From IMG/VR virus record IMGVR_UViG_2718217715_000004: a stretch of 21,792 bases of DNA; one strand, written 5' to 3'. Below, in pieces: positions 9,464 through 16,515 of this stretch. Under the pieces are notes generated by a model. That model saw nothing but the letters and a program-made list of their open reading frames with translations, made no database searches and was not told the DNA's origin. The stretch's first letter is position 1. Every line of letters begins with the position of its first letter. Made by a program: the position numbers and the translations under genes. Source of the DNA: a virus. Taxonomy: Duplodnaviria; Heunggongvirae; Uroviricota; Caudoviricetes.

Positions 9464-9990
9464 ATTGTGGGGCGACTGGCCACTCAACATCCGCTGCTAC
9501 TGTTGTATCAACACGATTCAACAATACCCGATATGTCTTCCATGCAGCCAGTAACGATGCCTCTTCCTCCGTCGCAATATCCAAATCTACGGCATCCTGA
9601 AGTGGCGCAATATGCTCACTGGCTACCTGCATCAGGCTGTTTTTTGTTTCTTCTGCCTCCCGTACCCGAAACAGTTTTTCTGCTTCTGCATCTTTCGCCC
9701 AGGATGTGCCGTTCCACTTCTGACACTCTCCATCCGGCGACAACCAGGTAACATTTTCCGGTAACGGACCGAGTTCAGAAATAAATAACGCGTCGCCGGA
9801 AGCCACGTCATAAACCGTTTTACCCCGATGATCTTCAACGAGATGCCACGATGCCTCATTACTGTTGAAAACAGCCACGAAGCCAGCCGGAATATCTGGC
9901 GGTGCAATATCGGTACTGTTTGCTGGCAGACCTGTATGAGGCGGAATGTATGCGTCACCTTCACCAATAAATTCATTAGTTCCGGCCAGC
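9462..9990 (-). pseudogene. tfa: Tail fibre assembly protein (lambdoid Tfa/TfaQ-like), 5' end removed by the IS insertion
   Basis: Minus-strand frame is open from the IS boundary: ...[61 protein letters not shown]...[12 protein letters not shown]...EWPVAPQ, matching remembered Tfa proteins; about 17 N-terminal codons are missing (ORF track shows only 9462-9878). Confidence 0.8.
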
Positions 9991-10044
9991 TGAACCGCCC
10001 CGGGAATCCTGGAGACTAAACTCCCTGAGAAAGAGGTAAACAGG

Positions 10045-10371
10045 ATGACTAAAAATACTCGTTTTTCCCCCGAAGTCCGTCAGCGGGCGATTCGTATGGT
10101 TCTGGAAAGTCAGGATGAATATGACTCACAGTGGGCGGCAATTTGTTCCATTGCCCCAAAGATTGGCTGTACGCCGGAGACTCTGCGTGTCTGGGTTCGC
10201 CAGCATGAGCGGGATACCGGGGGCGGTGATGGTGGGCTCACCAGCGCTGAACGTCAGCGTCTGAAAGAGCTGGAACGTGAAAATCGTGAACTGCGCCGCA
10301 GTAACGATATCCTTCGCCAGGCTTCCGCTTATTTTGCGAAGGCGGAGTTCGACCGCCTCTGGAAAAAATGA
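10045..10371 (+). CDS. IS3-family transposase OrfA
   Basis: 108 aa [27 protein letters not shown]...; 3 substitutions relative to copy A. Confidence 0.9.
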
Positions 10372-11258
10372 TGCCACTGCTGGATAAGCTGCGTGAGCAG
10401 TACGGGGTCGGACCGGTATGCAGCGAACTGCATATTGCCCCGTCAACGTATTACCATTGTCAGCAACAGCGACATCATCCGGATAAACGCAGTGCCCGTG
10501 CGCAGCACGACGACTGGCTGAAGAGAGAGATACAGCGCGTATACGATGAAAATCATCAGGTGTACGGTGTGCGTAAAGTCTGGCGTCAGTTGTTACGGGA
10601 AGGAATCAGGGTGGCCAGATGTACAGTGGCACGTCTCATGGCGGTTATGGGACTTGCCGGTGTTCTCCGGGGTAAAAAGGTCCGTACGACCATCAGCCGG
10701 AAAGCCGTTGCCGCAGGCGACCGCGTAAACCGTCAGTTCGTGGCAGAACGACCTGACCAGCTGTGGGTGGCTGATTTTACTTACGTCAGCACATGGCAGG
10801 GCTTCGTCTATGTGGCGTTTATCATTGATGTGTTTGCCGGATACATCGTGGGGTGGCGGGTCTCATCGTCTATGGAAACGACATTCGTGCTGGATGCGCT
10901 GGAGCAGGCGTTGTGGGCCCGTCGTCCGTCTGGCACCATCCATCACAGCGATAAAGGCTCTCAGTATGTGTCACTGGCCTATACGGAGCGACTAAAAGAA
11001 GCCGGATTACTGGCATCAACAGGGAGTACAGGCGACTCGTATGACAACGCGATGGCTGAGAGCATCAATGGTCTTTACAAAGCGGAGGTAATACACCGTA
11101 AGAGCTGGAAAAACCGTGCAGAAGTGGAACTGGCCACACTAACGTGGGTGGACTGGTATAACAATCGACGATTGCTGGGAAGGCTGGGCCATACTCCTCC
11201 GGCAGAAGCAGAAAAAGCTTATTATGCTTCCATCGGAAACGATGATCTGGCAGCCTGA
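10368..11258 (+). CDS. IS3-family transposase OrfB (DDE), -1 frame relative to orfA
   Basis: 296 aa; overlaps orfA at the GGAAAAAATGATG window. Confidence 0.9.
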
Positions 11259-11340
11259 GTTCACAGATAAAACACTCTCCAGGAAACCCGGGGCGGTTCA
11301 TGTTGGTATGTATTTTATTAGTTCACATACAATTATCAGA

Positions 11341-11655
11341 TTATTCTGGGAATAAGGTCTGAATATTCTTTTTTATTTTATAAAAATTGCATTCAACTCC
11401 GCTAGGCTGATTAGCCTGGTATGTTTCCTTGATGCTAACGGTATTGAAGGGGAGGTTGTCCTCTGGCCATTCGGCCATCCAGTAGGCAAATGCTGGGTTG
11501 CGCTTTATGAGTGCTAGCCCAGCCAGAAAGGCCGCGCGTTGCGCGCGGCTGCGTTCGGAGGCTGGCAGGCTATCGAGGTAATTGCACGCCTCCTGTTCAC
11601 TCTTGACGGCGGCGGGCTTCAGATAGAAACTTATCCGTCTGGTTGGTGTCGTCAT
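11341..11655 (-). CDS. parR: ParR/StbB-like centromere-binding adaptor of a type II partition system
   Basis: 104 aa; RRISFYLKPAAVKSEQEACNYLDSLPASERSRAQRAAFLAGLALIKRNP aligns closely with remembered plasmid R1 StbB/ParR (RRTIAFKLNPDVNQTDKIVCDTLDSIPQGERSRLNRAALTAGLALYRQNP); lies directly downstream of parM. Confidence 0.75.
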   Translation of the reverse strand: MTTPTRRISFYLKPAAVKSEQEACNYLDSLPASERSRAQRAAFLAGLALIKRNPAFAYWMAEWPEDNLPFNTVSIKETYQANQPSGVECNFYKIKKNIQTLFPE

Positions 11656-11659
11656 TGGT

Positions 11660-12619
11660 TTACTCCTTGTTCATTGCGTACAACCCATTAACCAGAGCAA
11701 ACTGTGGCACCCCGTCCGCGATGAAAGTCGCATTAACTCCGCAGGCTTCGCGGATAGCGGTTGCCACAATCTCCGCCCCGCCACCGACAACCATCACCCG
11801 CCCGTAACCCGAAAAAACCGCCAGCGCGCGGATCACGCGTTGTTTCAGTGTTTCTTCCTTTTCACGAATAACCGCCATCAGGCTGGCGTAATGCGCGTCA
11901 TTGTGGATGTGCTGGCGCAGCCAGGCTTCATCATGGCGATGTTCGATAATGGTATTGGCGATGTGGTGACTGGTGCGCATACCGTTAGTGGCCATCACCG
12001 ACAGTACGGCATCGGCCATCAGAGAAACGCCTACGTGTGGATCGCAAAACACCTGGCTGATACCTGCCAGTTGCCCCTGAACCTTTGCCACATCCAGCGT
12101 GGTTCCGCCCAAATCCACAATCAGCAGGGATTCAAACGGACTCATGTCAGCCAGTGCCTTAAAGCCAGCAGGAATGGATTCAGGCATAACCCGTACGTTA
12201 CGGATAGTGAATGCTTCGCCGTTCTGGTACTCCACCGGGCGCATGACGTTCGCTTTTTTGCGGTTGATGTTGGCCATGTCCGGCTGTGCGTTTGTATCGA
12301 AATACTCGCTCAGTGGCAGGGTGACAACCACATCCACTTCCTGTGGTGTGATGCCTGATTTGACCAGCGCGTGATGAATGGCAATTACATTCACATCGCT
12401 GTACTGGTATTGCGTGTCGGTCGTCTGGACAAAGCGATCGCTGACCGGATCAAAACCATAGCGCACGCCATCAAGCATGTAGTTCGCGGGCTGCGTGCCA
12501 CCGAATGGCGCAGACCATTCCGACTTGAAGCTGTTCGGGCTGATGGCGTTGCGGCGTTCGCCGTTCTCAGTCCATGCCAGCTTGATGTTGGTGGAGCCGT
12601 CGTCGATACAAATTTTCAT
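11660..12619 (-). CDS. parM: ParM/StbA-like actin-fold partition ATPase
   Basis: 319 aa; IDDGSTNIKL.W, ISPNSFK.EW, QYSDVNV.A.HHAL, FTI..V.VMPESIPAG, LLIVDLGGTTLD, VVGGGAE, LVNGLY conserved with remembered R1 ParM; SD AAGGAAAA. Confidence 0.85.
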   Translation of the reverse strand: MKICIDDGSTNIKLAWTENGERRNAISPNSFKSEWSAPFGGTQPANYMLDGVRYGFDPVSDRFVQTTDTQYQYSDVNVIAIHHALVKSGITPQEVDVVVTLPLSEYFDTNAQPDMANINRKKANVMRPVEYQNGEAFTIRNVRVMPESIPAGFKALADMSPFESLLIVDLGGTTLDVAKVQGQLAGISQVFCDPHVGVSLMADAVLSVMATNGMRTSHHIANTIIEHRHDEAWLRQHIHNDAHYASLMAVIREKEETLKQRVIRALAVFSGYGRVMVVGGGAEIVATAIREACGVNATFIADGVPQFALVNGLYAMNKE

Positions 12620-12637
12620 GTCGCTTTTCCTTATGTT

Positions 12638-12762
12638 GATTAATTAATCGGTTACAGGATTTTTAAATCCCGCTTTTGCCTGTTTTGTGCGCGCTTCATA
12701 TATCGCGGCGCGTTTTTTGCTCATTTACGGGATTTGTGAGTCCCGTTTCTGTCTGTTTTTTG
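12638..12762. repeat. Candidate parC-like region: 12-bp perfect palindrome GATTAATTAATC plus two ~33-bp imperfect direct repeats upstream of parM
   Basis: Palindrome at 12638-12649; repeats GGATTTTTAAATCCCGCTTTTGCCTGTTTTGTG (12657-12689) and GGGATTTGTGAGTCCCGTTTCTGTCTGTTTTTTG (12729-12762); the second repeat lies inside the 3' end of gene A, so function is speculative. Confidence 0.3.
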
Positions 12763-15518
12763 TTTCCACTGGTCAGGCCACCCCGCAGCAGGTCTGCTTT
12801 GCGGCTGGCGCGTTCAGTGGTTTCACTGATTCTCTGTGCGTGCTCTGCGTCGCGGATGGCGCGCAGCATGTCAGAAAGCACGGTAACGGGTGTTTTCATG
12901 GTGTTCTGGTCCTGCTGAAGTGTGGATGCCAGGCGTGCGGCGGCTTCAGGGTCTGATGCCCCCAGCTGTGCCAGATAGCTGGCGACCGGGTTATGGCGGA
13001 TCTCCGTGCTGCTTACGCCATGATTACGGCTCAGGCGCTGCCAGAGCTGCGTGATTCGGCTGTCCGGGCGGGTATCCGGTTTGCGTACAATTTCAAATCC
13101 CTGCGGTGCAATGATGCTGCCGTCAACGTACAGACTGCCGCCCCGTAACAGGTGCTGCATCTGTTGTTCACCGATATGCAGGCCGAGAGATTCAGCAGAC
13201 TCCCGCCATTCTTTAGCGAGTAATTCGTGGTTATCAGGCAAAGGCCGCTGCTGTTTGCGGCTCTGTGTCCAGCTCTGCATTTCATCACTGCTGTTTTTTG
13301 CCTGTTTGTCACGAAGCGAACGCATCAGCGCCCGGCGTTCGTGCCGTTTCAGTGAGCGCATCCATTCGTTCACGTCAACGCCGTCAGGAAGCTGCGGCCA
13401 CGGTGCTGGCCGTTCTTCCGGCTGTTCTGTCCCGTTGTTGTCCGTTTCCTGTACACGGGGACAGTTATTGCCACGAGTCCAAGGGGCGGCAGGGCCGCCC
13501 TGAAGGTCAAAACCATTTTCGCGGGCGCTGTCTTCTACTCCCGGTTTACGTCTTACCAGCTTCCAGTTATCCGGGTGCGTGCACACACGGGAGGATTCCC
13601 CGATGAGTGGTGACCAGATCCCGTAAATCTGTACGCTCTGTTCGCCGTAATCGTTCAGCTCATCTGCGAGGTCGTAGGCGGTGCGAATCAGGTAGTCCTT
13701 GCGTGGAACAAGTACGCCTCCCTGTTTCTCAATGTAGGTGGTAAAACATCCGGCATCAGCGGCAGCAAGAACCGCATCCATTGCGTCATCCTTCAGCCGT
13801 TGCGGGCCTTCCGGGTTGCGTGCCATCTGGCTGGCAAGGCGACGCAGTTCACGCCACACCTGACGGGAGGGGATGCCAAAGAACTGGAACTGGCGGACCC
13901 GGTGAAGGCGCGCCCAGCCAATGGCGCGTTCCACGCTCTCGGTCATTGATTTTCCGGTTTCGTGGTCAACGCGTGGTTTGCCTGTTTTCGGGTCGATGCC
14001 ATCCACGGCGCGGCTGTCCAGGTTTTTTCCGATGTAGGTGGCGATGTAGCTGGTTGGCGTGCCTTTTGAGCCGTCGACATACTCCGCCTTAAAGCGCGGA
14101 GTAATATCATCGCCCAGCTCGTGACGATCTTCCTGAATGGCAATATCGCGGGTGTGGGACACAATGGTGTCGATTTCTTCCGGATGAGCAAAGACCATCA
14201 TATGCCAGTGCACGGTGCCGTCATGGTGAGGCTCCACCGTGCGGATGCCATACCAGCGCAGGCCGTCGCGGTTCAGTTTCTTGCGGACCGCCGCAAAAAA
14301 CGTGTTAACCAGGTAATCGCTGGAGTCGCGCATGGTGGCCCCGTTCCATTTGGGATTCGGATGACCGTTCTCTGTTGTAGCGTGGTATTTTGACGGGCAG
14401 GTGACAGTCAGAAACACCGCTTTGTCGCCACGGGCTTCGGCCAGAAGTTCCAGCCCCTTCATGGTGGCCATCATTTCTGCCTTACGGTGAACCGGGTTAC
14501 TTACTCCCGCGTAATACACTGTCTCGAGATCAATCGTGAACCCGTCTTCGTTTTCCAGCATGAAACTTTTCAGGAAATCGCGTGTTTTCTCGCGCTGTGC
14601 GCGAAACTCGCTTAACGCGTCCTGGCTCAGATAGGGCGATGTTTTTCTGGAAACCAGACAGGCGGCGCGGAGTTGTTCTTCTCTCCACTCGCAACGTAAC
14701 AGCCACAGTTTGCGTTTCCACCATTCCGCACAGGTCAGGCGAAGGATTGCGCCCGGCAGCAGCTCCGTGTCCGGTTCGTTCCTCCGGTCTTTGTCTGTTG
14801 TCAGTGCGTCATAATGTGGAGGCATGGCGTGCAGGTGTAACGCCATGCGGGCCAGCATCTGATACGCCTTCAGCGTTACATCCATGGTCAGTTCGCCATC
14901 GGTCGCGCCAAAGCCATCGCAGAGTTTTTCGAAGGTGCTGCTGAACATCGCCGCCGTCATGGTGGCCAGCGTCTGTATCTGGTGTTTGTTGAGCTGCGGC
15001 AGGTAAAGCAAATCGTCCTGGCGTTCGCGTCCGGCAAGGGAGCGATAACCCTGTGTCAGCCAGCGGTGATCGGTGCGCTCCAGACGTTCGAATATTTTGC
15101 GCAGGTTTCCGCGCGCGTAGCGTTCAGCCTGCCAGCTCTTTTTGCCTTTCTGACGATCGGCTTCCTGTTTTTTGCGCAGGAAGGAGAGGTGGCGAATAAG
15201 CGGATCGCGCAGATAGGACGGCAGCAGGCGCAGCGAGGCCATGGCTTCATCCACCGCACCGCGTGCCTGTTTTCTGGCGTCTCCTGCCAGTGTGATGGTT
15301 TTGTCCTGTTTTTCCTGTGCGTCCAGGCTTTTATTAATCAGGTTGCCCAGCGGCGTTGCGGAGAACGCCGCATCAGCCATTTCCTGGCGGCGCTCGTTCT
15401 CTACCCGGTAGGCATCCAGCCAGGAGGAAAGCGCGGATTCAGGAGCGGGGATCCCCGTTCCTTCACGCCCCACTGCGTGGCGCGGTTGTTGCCAGTCCCT
15501 GATGTACTCTGCCGTCAT
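12696..15518 (-). CDS. A: P2-type replication initiation endonuclease gpA (rolling-circle, HUH class)
   Basis: 940 aa; HUH-type motif TVHWHMMVFAH and paired tyrosines SYIATYIGK, typical of the phage GPA family; longer than P2 A as remembered. Confidence 0.75.
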   Translation of the reverse strand: MTAEYIRDWQQPRHAVGREGTGIPAPESALSSWLDAYRVENERRQEMADAAFSATPLGNLINKSLDAQEKQDKTITLAGDARKQARGAVDEAMASLRLLPSYLRDPLIRHLSFLRKKQEADRQKGKKSWQAERYARGNLRKIFERLERTDHRWLTQGYRSLAGRERQDDLLYLPQLNKHQIQTLATMTAAMFSSTFEKLCDGFGATDGELTMDVTLKAYQMLARMALHLHAMPPHYDALTTDKDRRNEPDTELLPGAILRLTCAEWWKRKLWLLRCEWREEQLRAACLVSRKTSPYLSQDALSEFRAQREKTRDFLKSFMLENEDGFTIDLETVYYAGVSNPVHRKAEMMATMKGLELLAEARGDKAVFLTVTCPSKYHATTENGHPNPKWNGATMRDSSDYLVNTFFAAVRKKLNRDGLRWYGIRTVEPHHDGTVHWHMMVFAHPEEIDTIVSHTRDIAIQEDRHELGDDITPRFKAEYVDGSKGTPTSYIATYIGKNLDSRAVDGIDPKTGKPRVDHETGKSMTESVERAIGWARLHRVRQFQFFGIPSRQVWRELRRLASQMARNPEGPQRLKDDAMDAVLAAADAGCFTTYIEKQGGVLVPRKDYLIRTAYDLADELNDYGEQSVQIYGIWSPLIGESSRVCTHPDNWKLVRRKPGVEDSARENGFDLQGGPAAPWTRGNNCPRVQETDNNGTEQPEERPAPWPQLPDGVDVNEWMRSLKRHERRALMRSLRDKQAKNSSDEMQSWTQSRKQQRPLPDNHELLAKEWRESAESLGLHIGEQQMQHLLRGGSLYVDGSIIAPQGFEIVRKPDTRPDSRITQLWQRLSRNHGVSSTEIRHNPVASYLAQLGASDPEAAARLASTLQQDQNTMKTPVTVLSDMLRAIRDAEHAQRISETTERASRKADLLRGGLTSGNKKQTETGLTNPVNEQKTRRDI

Positions 15519-15524
15519 AGTGAT

Positions 15525-15890
15525 TTACTTCGTCATGCCATTCAGGGTGTCGCGGCAGGCTGTAGCCAGCCGCTGAATTTCCAGCACGGTGTCTTCTGTG
15601 TCGGCATGGCGATGTGTGATGCGGATGCTGTCGGCAATCACATCGACGATTGCAGAGGATGGGCGCTGGTAAATGCCAATAACGGACGGGGTGCCACCTT
15701 CAATGCGGTAAAGCCTGTAATTTCCCTCGTGGCTGTCAATCATGTAGCGACCATCAATAACAATCTTTCCGTCAGCGAGCTGCGGTACAGGCAGGGATTT
15801 CAGGTACATGTCATAACGATCACGCACGCGAGCGGCAAGATCACGTTCTGTGTTGAGCAGGTATTCAAGAAAGTCGTTGGCGAGAATCAT
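15525..15890 (-). CDS. Hypothetical early-operon protein (121 aa) immediately upstream of A
   Basis: ORF with SD AGAGGA; no recognisable motifs. Confidence 0.5.
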   Translation of the reverse strand: MILANDFLEYLLNTERDLAARVRDRYDMYLKSLPVPQLADGKIVIDGRYMIDSHEGNYRLYRIEGGTPSVIGIYQRPSSAIVDVIADSIRITHRHADTEDTVLEIQRLATACRDTLNGMTK

Positions 15891-15962
15891 TGCGGCAATC
15901 CTCTTGTTACAGATGTGCGAAGGCCTCCCGCCGCAAGGTGCAGGAAAGGCCCGGAACAGGAA

Positions 15963-16193
15963 TTAATGGAGTTTGTTTTGCTGCTGGATGAGCTGTTGAA
16001 ACTCGTGCAGATCATCCGCCAGATAGCTGAAAACAGAGGCGGAATAAATGTTTGATAGTGCGTGGCTGCGCTCATGCAGCATATTGATGTGCATGATTTG
16101 CGCGACGCGTGATGCGCGGGAAAGTCTGCGGTTGATTTCAGTCTGGATGTGACGACGCTCCGCGATAGCGCGGTGCTGTTTGCGGTCTGCCAT
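15963..16193 (-). CDS. Hypothetical small basic protein (76 aa)
   Basis: ORF with SD AGAGG; preceded by a structured intergenic region. Confidence 0.45.
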   Translation of the reverse strand: MADRKQHRAIAERRHIQTEINRRLSRASRVAQIMHINMLHERSHALSNIYSASVFSYLADDLHEFQQLIQQQNKLH

Positions 16194-16372
16194 GGTGTGG
16201 CCTCTTTGCTCGGTGATAGAAATAACTCACCATCCAGAGTTGAGAATCTCGGGGTGGCGAGACGTACAGGGTTCTCAACACCGGAGAGCAAAGAATCCGG
16301 CCCGACCGAAGTCGGCCCCGTACGCCCCGCCATAATTCTGACGCGAAAAAGACGTGGCAATACAGTACGCAC

Positions 16373-16393
16373 AAAAAAACCGCTAGCGCGGTT
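16373..16393 (-). terminator. Rho-independent terminator on the minus strand
   Basis: Read on the minus strand: stem AACCGC / GCGGTT, loop GCTA, followed by T-run (GCGGTTTTTTT). Confidence 0.5.
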
Positions 16394-16464
16394 ATGCGCT
16401 TTGCTCTGTATCGGGTTGAGAATCCCGGCACCCGTTTTATGAGGTGCAGCGGAAATGTAACCTG

Positions 16465-16494
16465 ACCGATTGCGGCATGGCAAGCGGTTTTTTT
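16465..16494 (+). terminator. Possible plus-strand intrinsic terminator (convergent with the minus-strand one)
   Basis: Imperfect stem ACCGATTGC / GCAAGCGGT followed by T7 on the plus strand. Confidence 0.3.
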
Positions 16495-16515
16495 GTGTGT
16501 GCATGTTCTGGTTTC

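Follow-up and report, generated by a model that had tools for sequence, protein, structure and literature searches.

The 21,792-nt stretch of tailed-phage DNA filed as IMG/VR virus record IMGVR_UViG_2718217715_000004 (hereafter the window) carries the genes parM and parR next to the replication gene A of a P2-like prophage. Our analysis indicates that in P88-like and related P2-like phages parMR has long belonged to the replication (early) module, passed on by vertical descent, and is not variable cargo, and it shows that the window copy is, judged by its sequence, a genuine and intact pair of the R1/StbAB family, homologous to type II partition systems. We see in it an ordinary, conserved and already reported P88-type module rather than a sign of a special prophage history, and its biological role is a testable question of moderate interest. 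As for that role, we lean with modest confidence towards a complete module under selection that has no promoter of its own, would be read through from gene A and would act on the excised or infecting circle while it replicates.

The three genes lie on one strand (the minus strand) in the order gene A, parM, parR. Gene A (12696-15518) encodes a rolling-circle replication initiator of 940 amino acids (aa) (gpA; Pfam Phage_GPA, 2.4e-131) that is 98% identical to gp16 of phage P88, and 76 bp separate its end from parM (11660-12619), the gene of an actin-fold ATPase of 319 aa that matches StbA_N (1.8e-82) and the ParM C-terminal domain (3.5e-69) in Pfam. The structure of R1 ParM (PDB 1mwk) aligned with window ParM over the full length with an identity of 47% (E 7e-93). 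The motifs DDGST, PESIPAG, DLGGTT and GGGAE of the nucleotide-binding site are all intact, so the phosphate-1, connect, phosphate-2 and adenosine motifs that mark a type II ParM are in place; across the phage clade described below the residues D6, D7, G8, S9, T10, E147, D169, G171-T174 and G279-A282 are invariant. A preliminary description of this DNA, made from the letters alone, had proposed to check the catalytic residues of ParM for decay, and they are not degenerate. It had also called the two genes homologues of StbA and StbB of plasmid R1 in the canonical order, parM and then parR, and had placed them directly downstream of gene A where P2 has its tin/old genes; both statements are confirmed, the locus occupying the interval between the genes for gpA and gpQ (the gpA-gpQ interval).

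The parR gene (11341-11655, minus strand) encodes a predicted centromere-binding adaptor of 104 aa, with matches to Pfam PF10784 (Plasmid_stab_B; 7.7e-29) and to PHROG 2515 'partition protein' (1e-54). A profile built from nine ParRs matches ParR of pB171 (PDB 2JD3) with an E value of 3.6e-15. The protein begins with a ribbon-helix-helix (RHH) domain, a domain that is an obligate dimer; the linker that follows is variable, and the C-terminal tail, KKNIQTLFPE, probably binds ParM. The tail motif (K/R)xN(A/I)xxLFP is kept in all phage and plasmid ParRs that we aligned and resembles the tail of R1 ParR, a known ParM binder. An RHH domain and a ParM-binding tail, encoded directly downstream of parM, are what is expected of a type II adaptor, and here they are recognised by sequence alone.

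The window is 100% identical to chromosomes of Escherichia coli O157:H7, where the prophage, which has an integrase gene, is inserted between the Gly-Cys-Leu (leuZ) tRNA cluster beside pgsA and yecA. It is most likely the defective P2-like prophage Sp13, because O157 Sakai has no P2-like prophage other than Sp13 (PMC2669165). The gene A-parM-parR block corresponds to gp16-18 of phage P88 (Xuanwuvirus, Peduoviridae), and the prophage belongs with the P88-like phages by its P88-type early region (int, C, cox and gene A), its gpA and its ParM (99% identical to that of P88), its P2-type tail genes and its chromosomal integration, in agreement with the RefSeq annotation. The module and the region upstream of it are the same in both; the O157 copy differs in having another parR allele from codon 19 on and in sitting in a deleted remnant ridden with insertion sequences (IS).

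Both parM and parR are already annotated in RefSeq and PHROGs, and Rousset et al. 2022 (PMC9122126) reported a putative plasmid partitioning system in the gpA-gpQ interval of about a quarter of E. coli P2-like phages. The presence of parMR in these phages, as well as the phage-plasmid speculation, is thus already in print (PMC9122126), and we found no functional test of ParMR in P2-like phages in the literature. What the present analysis adds is the promoter-less architecture with two dyads and the finding that the phage clade is monophyletic. Among 50,697 phage records, a ParM of the same family occurs only in 14 P88-like records, at 95-99% amino-acid identity, and at 48% in D6, a phage-plasmid of the P1 type. 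A survey of 5,426 complete E. coli genomes, in which parM was counted at a coverage of at least 80%, found parM in 1279 (~24%) and the P88-type gene A in 1322, the first count being ~97% of the second. The preliminary description had treated parMR as an oddity of the window prophage; with these counts and with relatives in five other genera it is instead a conserved P88-like component. Its places in these genomes are chromosomal in 1441 of 1443 cases, with up to three copies per genome.

Six plasmid records carry a ParM that is at least 95% identical, and the next best plasmid ParM stands at 53%. One of the six, pZ1323PEC0009-2 (NZ_CP148288.1, 1-34461) from a cat E. coli isolate, is a complete circular P88-like genome of 34.5 kb with integrase, cox and C; the circle may represent either a replicative form after excision or a genuine episome, and the closest relatives of its phage (99.7-99.9% identical) are all integrated. 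Four others are large (228 kb-1.4 Mb), with a match annotated as ParM, ParR and replication endonuclease, and the sixth is a Salmonella record of 272 kb (ParM 99.1%). A recent capture from a plasmid was rejected, since the nearest plasmid ParM is at 53% and what the only plasmid records reaching 95% or more contain is the phage. The same records bear on the idea, raised by Rousset et al. 2022 and in the preliminary description, that P88-like lysogens live as low-copy plasmids partitioned by ParMRC. Such a life is suggested in PMC9122126 and is consistent with the one circular record and with D6, a P1-like phage-plasmid that uses a ParMR of the same family. However, nearly all parM places in E. 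coli are chromosomal, which is not the picture of an autonomous replicon, and the phage of the circular record itself encodes an integrase and has only integrated close relatives. Rolling-circle replication by gpA, moreover, does not amount to a copy-controlled plasmid replicon and, if P2 biology holds here, a repressed early operon would yield neither gpA nor ParMR, for which we find no separate promoter (see below). We consider it unlikely that the lysogens are plasmids. Of the plasmid link drawn in the preliminary description, a plasmid origin stays plausible, the phage ParM clade being nested among plasmid ParMs, whereas a phage-plasmid lifestyle does not agree with the chromosomal places and the integrase.

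Beyond E. coli, divergent P2-like prophages with parM were found in five further genera, namely Salmonella, Plesiomonas, Hafnia, Serratia and Enterobacter. Around the homologues of 54-62% identity (Plesiomonas, Hafnia, Serratia and Enterobacter) the order is gpA, 0-2 open reading frames (ORFs), parM, parR, variable cargo and portal. The database search for the context of ParM and ParR that the preliminary description had suggested was run across species with one genome per species and gave 32 ParM loci. In this set gpA and portal/capsid genes flank every ParM that is at least 57% identical, as well as the 54% Enterobacter one, and the plasmid-type loci are not so flanked. The phage-context ParMs form one clade (neighbour-joining, bootstrap 90) that lies beside the clade of IncL/M-type plasmids and apart from R1 and D6. 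Between phages, ParM identity amounts to 54-62% as against 29-55% for gpA, 31-47% for portal and 26-41% for capsid; the length of gpA in the clade ranges from 785 to 940 aa. The pattern of the phage ParMs fits one old acquisition and then retention under selection, not a recent plasmid remnant. Phage parM is under strong purifying selection, as the ratio of nonsynonymous to synonymous substitution rates (dN/dS) within the clade is 0.0-0.17. One further record, the 226-kb contig NZ_JBQPOM010000071.1 labelled as a Firmicute ('Vagococcus sp. WN89Y'), holds a P88-like prophage whose ParM and portal share 97% and 100% identity with those of E. coli phages, and is probably a contamination or a mislabelled assembly.

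The parR gene is a mosaic with a junction at codon 18 (near 11601). Upstream of it the nucleotides of O157 and P88 are 100% identical; downstream the identity falls to 61%, with a synonymous rate (dS) of ~1.9 in the RHH core and a linker that cannot be aligned, and from codon 19 on the two alleles share 53% amino-acid identity. Beside this junction the parM genes of O157 and P88 differ by ~2%. In the RHH region dN/dS is ~0.19 between the two anciently diverged alleles, and E. albertii has a third parR allele. It seems that recombination in the variable gpA-gpQ hotspot has its left boundary at the conserved 5' end of parM-parR.

Such anciently diverged parR alleles joined to identical parM would be in line with a role in lysogenic conversion or exclusion, where ParR and its sites interfere with relatives or plasmids that share the centromere, or with a module that is simply defence cargo of the hotspot. 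The location, which is the tin/old defence hotspot of P2 (PMC9122126), and the occurrence of up to three parM copies in one E. coli genome could be read in the same way. Yet there was no PADLOC match, no promoter was found that would allow expression in lysogens, and cross-talk with known plasmids is unlikely when the nearest plasmid ParM reaches only 53%. Besides, parMR is conserved; what varies is the cargo downstream of parR, with HicAB, a KAP NTPase and DUF3800 among its members. A defence system or hotspot cargo of the tin/old type was rejected on the missing PADLOC match and on the constancy of parMR among related phages, and we hold a function in conversion or exclusion as a whole to be very improbable. 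The preliminary description had reckoned with a standard conserved cargo of known non-partition role; the locus is indeed a conserved feature of P88-like phages, while no non-partition role is known for it.

The region upstream of parM contains the candidate centromere. A 12-bp palindrome and repeats had been pointed out there in the preliminary description, and both are present, but the repeats are not an R1-type iteron array, nor does the region look like a plasmid-type parC. They are two direct copies of 38 nt, 79% identical and 73 bp apart. The proximal copy (12652-12689), detected by a repeat search in the spacer between gene A and parM, holds the dyad CAGGA-N8-TCCCG (12655-12672), and the distal copy (12725-12762), inside the last gene A codons, holds the perfect dyad CGGGA-N8-TCCCG (12728-12745); we regard them as candidate halves 1 and 2 of parC. 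The pattern CGGGA-N8-TCCCG has 3 matches in the window against 0.64 expected, and two of the three are at the parMR upstream region. Two GGG(A)-N-(T)CCC dyads spaced by 72-73 bp are common to the phages of E. coli (P88 included), E. albertii, Salmonella, Plesiomonas and Hafnia, and throughout this group the upstream ORF includes the distal dyad. For the E. coli group this means that the last codons of gene A, which encode the C-terminal tail of gpA, overlap the distal ParR-type dyad.

In Serratia and Enterobacter phages the place of the dyads is taken by an inverted pair, ATAGAAAAAT/ATTTTTCTRT, the core of which equals the iteron of IncL/M plasmids. The N-terminal strand of ParR reads TRR(I/V)SFYL in the phages with dyads, NRKISFYL in the Serratia and Enterobacter phages and NRKCSFYI in IncL/M. 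Our main argument that the two dyads are likely ParR targets is that the type of site switches together with this strand. What the phage loci offer as parC of a type II system are thus two candidate dyad sites, conserved across genera, and no iteron array. A low-threshold repeat search at the window locus found no R1-type arrays of 10-11-bp iterons, and the same inspection of controls gave clear short direct iteron arrays in an IncL/M plasmid and in phage D6. An R1-type centromere was rejected on this comparison. The perfect palindrome GATTAATTAATC (12638-12649), read directly from the sequence, lies between the proximal dyad and the Shine-Dalgarno sequence. It is not kept in the Plesiomonas and Hafnia relatives, to which only the half ATTAATCAA beside the Shine-Dalgarno sequence is common, and it was rejected as a centromere for want of a palindrome outside the E. 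coli group. The dyads had been flagged on the plus strand as antisense intrinsic terminators, a reading that we rejected since Plesiomonas and Hafnia phages keep the dyad without a T-rich tail. No RNA families were found within the parMR locus.

We then consider transcription, for which promoters were defined as sigma-70-like sequences with at least 9/12 matches within 220 bp upstream of parM. None of 11 phage loci has one, as against 8 of 11 plasmid loci, and at plasmid-type loci the promoters sit ~90-150 bp (mostly 90-110 bp) upstream of parM. A consensus promoter in the interval between gene A and parM was found neither in the scan of the window nor in that of the 11 phage loci, and the window scan found no terminator between the two genes. 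The autoregulated promoter embedded in parC that is typical of type II systems is therefore not seen at the phage loci. A promoter belonging to parMR itself was rejected on these negative scans and on the absence from P88 of the candidate TTTAAA-17-ATTAAT. Because no promoter or terminator was found between gene A and parM, and in view of P2 regulation, we infer that parMR is read through from gene A and would form the 3' end of an early operon transcript shared with it. In P88 a strong hairpin, perfect over 10 bp and GC-rich (10137-10160), lies 5 nt past the parR stop and probably marks where the early transcription unit ends. The corresponding region of the O157 copy is gone with an IS-associated deletion, and in phage 569R5 the gene after parR is convergent.

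Starting from intact genes, purifying selection, a common lineage, conserved sites and a missing promoter, all of which are direct observations, we infer ParR binding, filament formation, the timing of expression and the benefit to be as follows. Read-through from gene A would supply ParM and ParR, and only while the early operon is active, upon infection or upon induction and excision. ParR dimers would then bind the dyads at 12655-12672 and 12728-12745 through the N-terminal RHH strand TRRISFYLKP, as the conservation of the sites and the joint switch of strand and site suggest. By homology to R1, the C-terminal tail of ParR would capture filaments of ATP-bound ParM, and these filaments could push apart or disperse the circles replicated by gpA to cell halves or to daughter cells, either before lysis or during a non-lysing extrachromosomal phase. 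In the O157 remnant the head and lysis genes are lost, but Sp13, which it most likely is, excises and is amplified, and here the module would be a true partition system for the excised circle.

Several points weigh against a promoter-less partition module of this kind. The weak promoter candidate mentioned above overlaps the proximal dyad of O157, although it is not conserved in P88, and parMR may have a promoter that is weak or depends on an activator. With only two dyads, the phage loci fall well short of the ten iterons in R1, perhaps too far for an R1-type capping complex to assemble. P2, 186 and about three quarters of the P2-like phages do without the module, which is dispensable for the P2 life cycle. 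Segregation to daughters is without obvious value in a cell committed to lysis, and the intactness of the module in O157 could follow from a recent decay of the remaining prophage alone.

Known systems help to place the phage module. R1/R100 ParMRC (StbAB) and its IncL/M relatives share with it the ParM fold (47% identity to R1, up to 53% to plasmid homologues), the RHH domain and C-terminal tail of ParR, the gene order and the presence of repeated upstream sites. In contrast to them, the phage ParMs are a separate clade, the plasmids have two arrays of direct iterons in place of two dyads, and the phage loci have no centromere-embedded promoter and are found on an integrating phage behind the gene of a rolling-circle initiator. 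Phage-plasmid D6 has ParM and ParR of the same family in a phage genome (48% identity); it differs in that its prophage truly is a plasmid, that several iterons lie upstream of the genes and that its ParM falls outside the P2-like phage clade.

Closer in life style is SrpMRC of the SXT/R391 integrative and conjugative elements (Carraro et al. 2015, PMC4489591), which has four 13-bp repeats and no constitutive promoter and stabilises the excised rolling-circle form. It too is a type II module on a normally integrated element with a small centromere, and it is expressed only with the activation/excision programme. SrpM is of another ParM lineage (IncA/C-related), however, SrpR has no recognisable homology to ParR, and the function was shown experimentally for SrpMRC whereas we propose it for phage ParMR. 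A second parallel is AlpAC/alpS of the Corynebacterium glutamicum prophage CGP3 (Donovan et al. 2015, PMC4446434), again a prophage-coded actin-like filament with a DNA-binding adaptor that is induced early on excision and acts on circular phage DNA. AlpC belongs to another actin-like family and a Gram-positive host, gene order and sites are different, and the role that has been shown is in efficient replication, for which AlpAC is needed.

The CGP3 case raises the question whether ParM and ParR might be replication cofactors, organising or stimulating rolling-circle replication by gpA, either by positioning the template, as AlpAC does for CGP3, or by contact with gpA, a relaxase-like nicking initiator of the HUH type, with a larger burst as the gain. 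R1 ParM and ParR bind the relaxase TraI and stimulate DNA relaxation (PMC4949242), the linkage to gene A is invariant across very divergent phages, parMR appears to be co-transcribed with gene A, and the distal dyad is inside gene A. Expression of a P2-type early operon, by established P2 biology, coincides with lytic commitment. We nevertheless think this rather unlikely: there is no evidence for contact between ParMR and gpA, the ranges of identity between phages (29-55% for gpA, 54-62% for ParM) give no sign of tight co-evolution, and most P2-like phages replicate well without ParMR.

In the O157 prophage, integrase, C, cox, the early genes, gene A and parMR are intact, and the preliminary description was right that the rolling-circle initiator and the partition genes are both retained. 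Its statement that the morphogenesis genes are lost holds for the head, lysis, baseplate and fibre genes, which are missing together with the region expected from P2 synteny to hold cos; a tail block (3118-10007) with sheath, tube, E/E', a frameshifted tape measure, U and a tail-fibre assembly gene is kept. Transposase genes of IS1203 (IS3 family; Pfam HTH_Tnp_1 and rve, RefSeq annotation) are found at 10045-11258 on the plus strand; the element ends at ~11300, ~40 bp past the parR stop, and homology to intact phages resumes at 11301. Compared with intact P88, the deletion marked by IS1203 begins shortly after parR, extends as far as the tail-fibre assembly gene and has removed the hotspot cargo and the portal, head, lysis, baseplate and fibre genes.

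One could therefore ask if the O157 module is an idle remnant, spared by decay so far only because O157 is a young lineage. The prophage is certainly decaying, with two IS3 copies, a frameshifted tape measure and the loss of head and lysis genes, and the parMR genes of many O157 strains are mutually 100% identical, so there is no within-lineage variation from which selection could be read. Sp13 is, however, known to excise spontaneously and to circularise, with ~30-fold amplification and induction of early genes by mitomycin C (Asadulghani 2009, PMC2669165), and as it still excises and replicates a substrate for partition exists. Taken with the intact int, C, cox, gene A and parMR and with strong purifying selection across the wider clade, this leads us to judge an idle remnant improbable. 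More tentatively, and as a possibility on which we would not insist, the ParMRC of P2-like phages could be a distinct, stripped-down variant (no promoter, two dyads) made for the extrachromosomal phase driven by gpA and perhaps coupled physically to the HUH initiator gpA as R1 ParMR is to TraI. Defective Sp13, which excises and replicates but has no genes of its own for lysing the cell or for packaging, would then be a plasmid-like replicon that integrates and is actively partitioned.

Roughly one in four complete E. coli genomes has a prophage with the parMR module. If parMR does partition or organise excised replicating DNA, it would join SrpMRC and AlpAC as a case where integrating elements routinely invest in cytoskeletal DNA transport while episomal, and its two dyads would provide mechanistic studies with a ParR-centromere that is minimal by nature. 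In O157, parMR could help to explain the retention of a prophage that has suffered heavy deletion but can still excise and replicate.

Some further features of the window were noted. Two IS3-family copies (IS1203/IS629-like), at 1775-2988 on the minus strand and at 10045-11258 on the plus strand, flank the retained tail block, and each has an ALIL frameshifting pseudoknot (Rfam). Within this block the frameshifted tape measure gene spans 5349-8188, and a gene for a hexapeptide-repeat acetyltransferase (8813-9418, plus strand), annotated as serine O-acetyltransferase, lies between U and the tail-fibre assembly gene and is possibly a cargo or lysogenic-conversion gene. The region of the tail-fibre assembly gene also contains a full-length match to the Rfam RNA IS009 (9499-9697, minus strand, 191 bits). 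On the other side of gene A, Rfam matches to the C4 antisense RNA (16250-16337, 78.5 bits) and to the Hfq-binding RNA isrK (16373-16447, 63 bits), both on the minus strand, lie in or beside an Ash-family ORF (15887-16504) near an annotated 'derepression protein'. This region looks like a c4-ant anti-repressor switch of the P1/P7 type in a P2-like early region, and such a switch may be linked to the unexpected inducibility of Sp13 by mitomycin C (PMC2669165).

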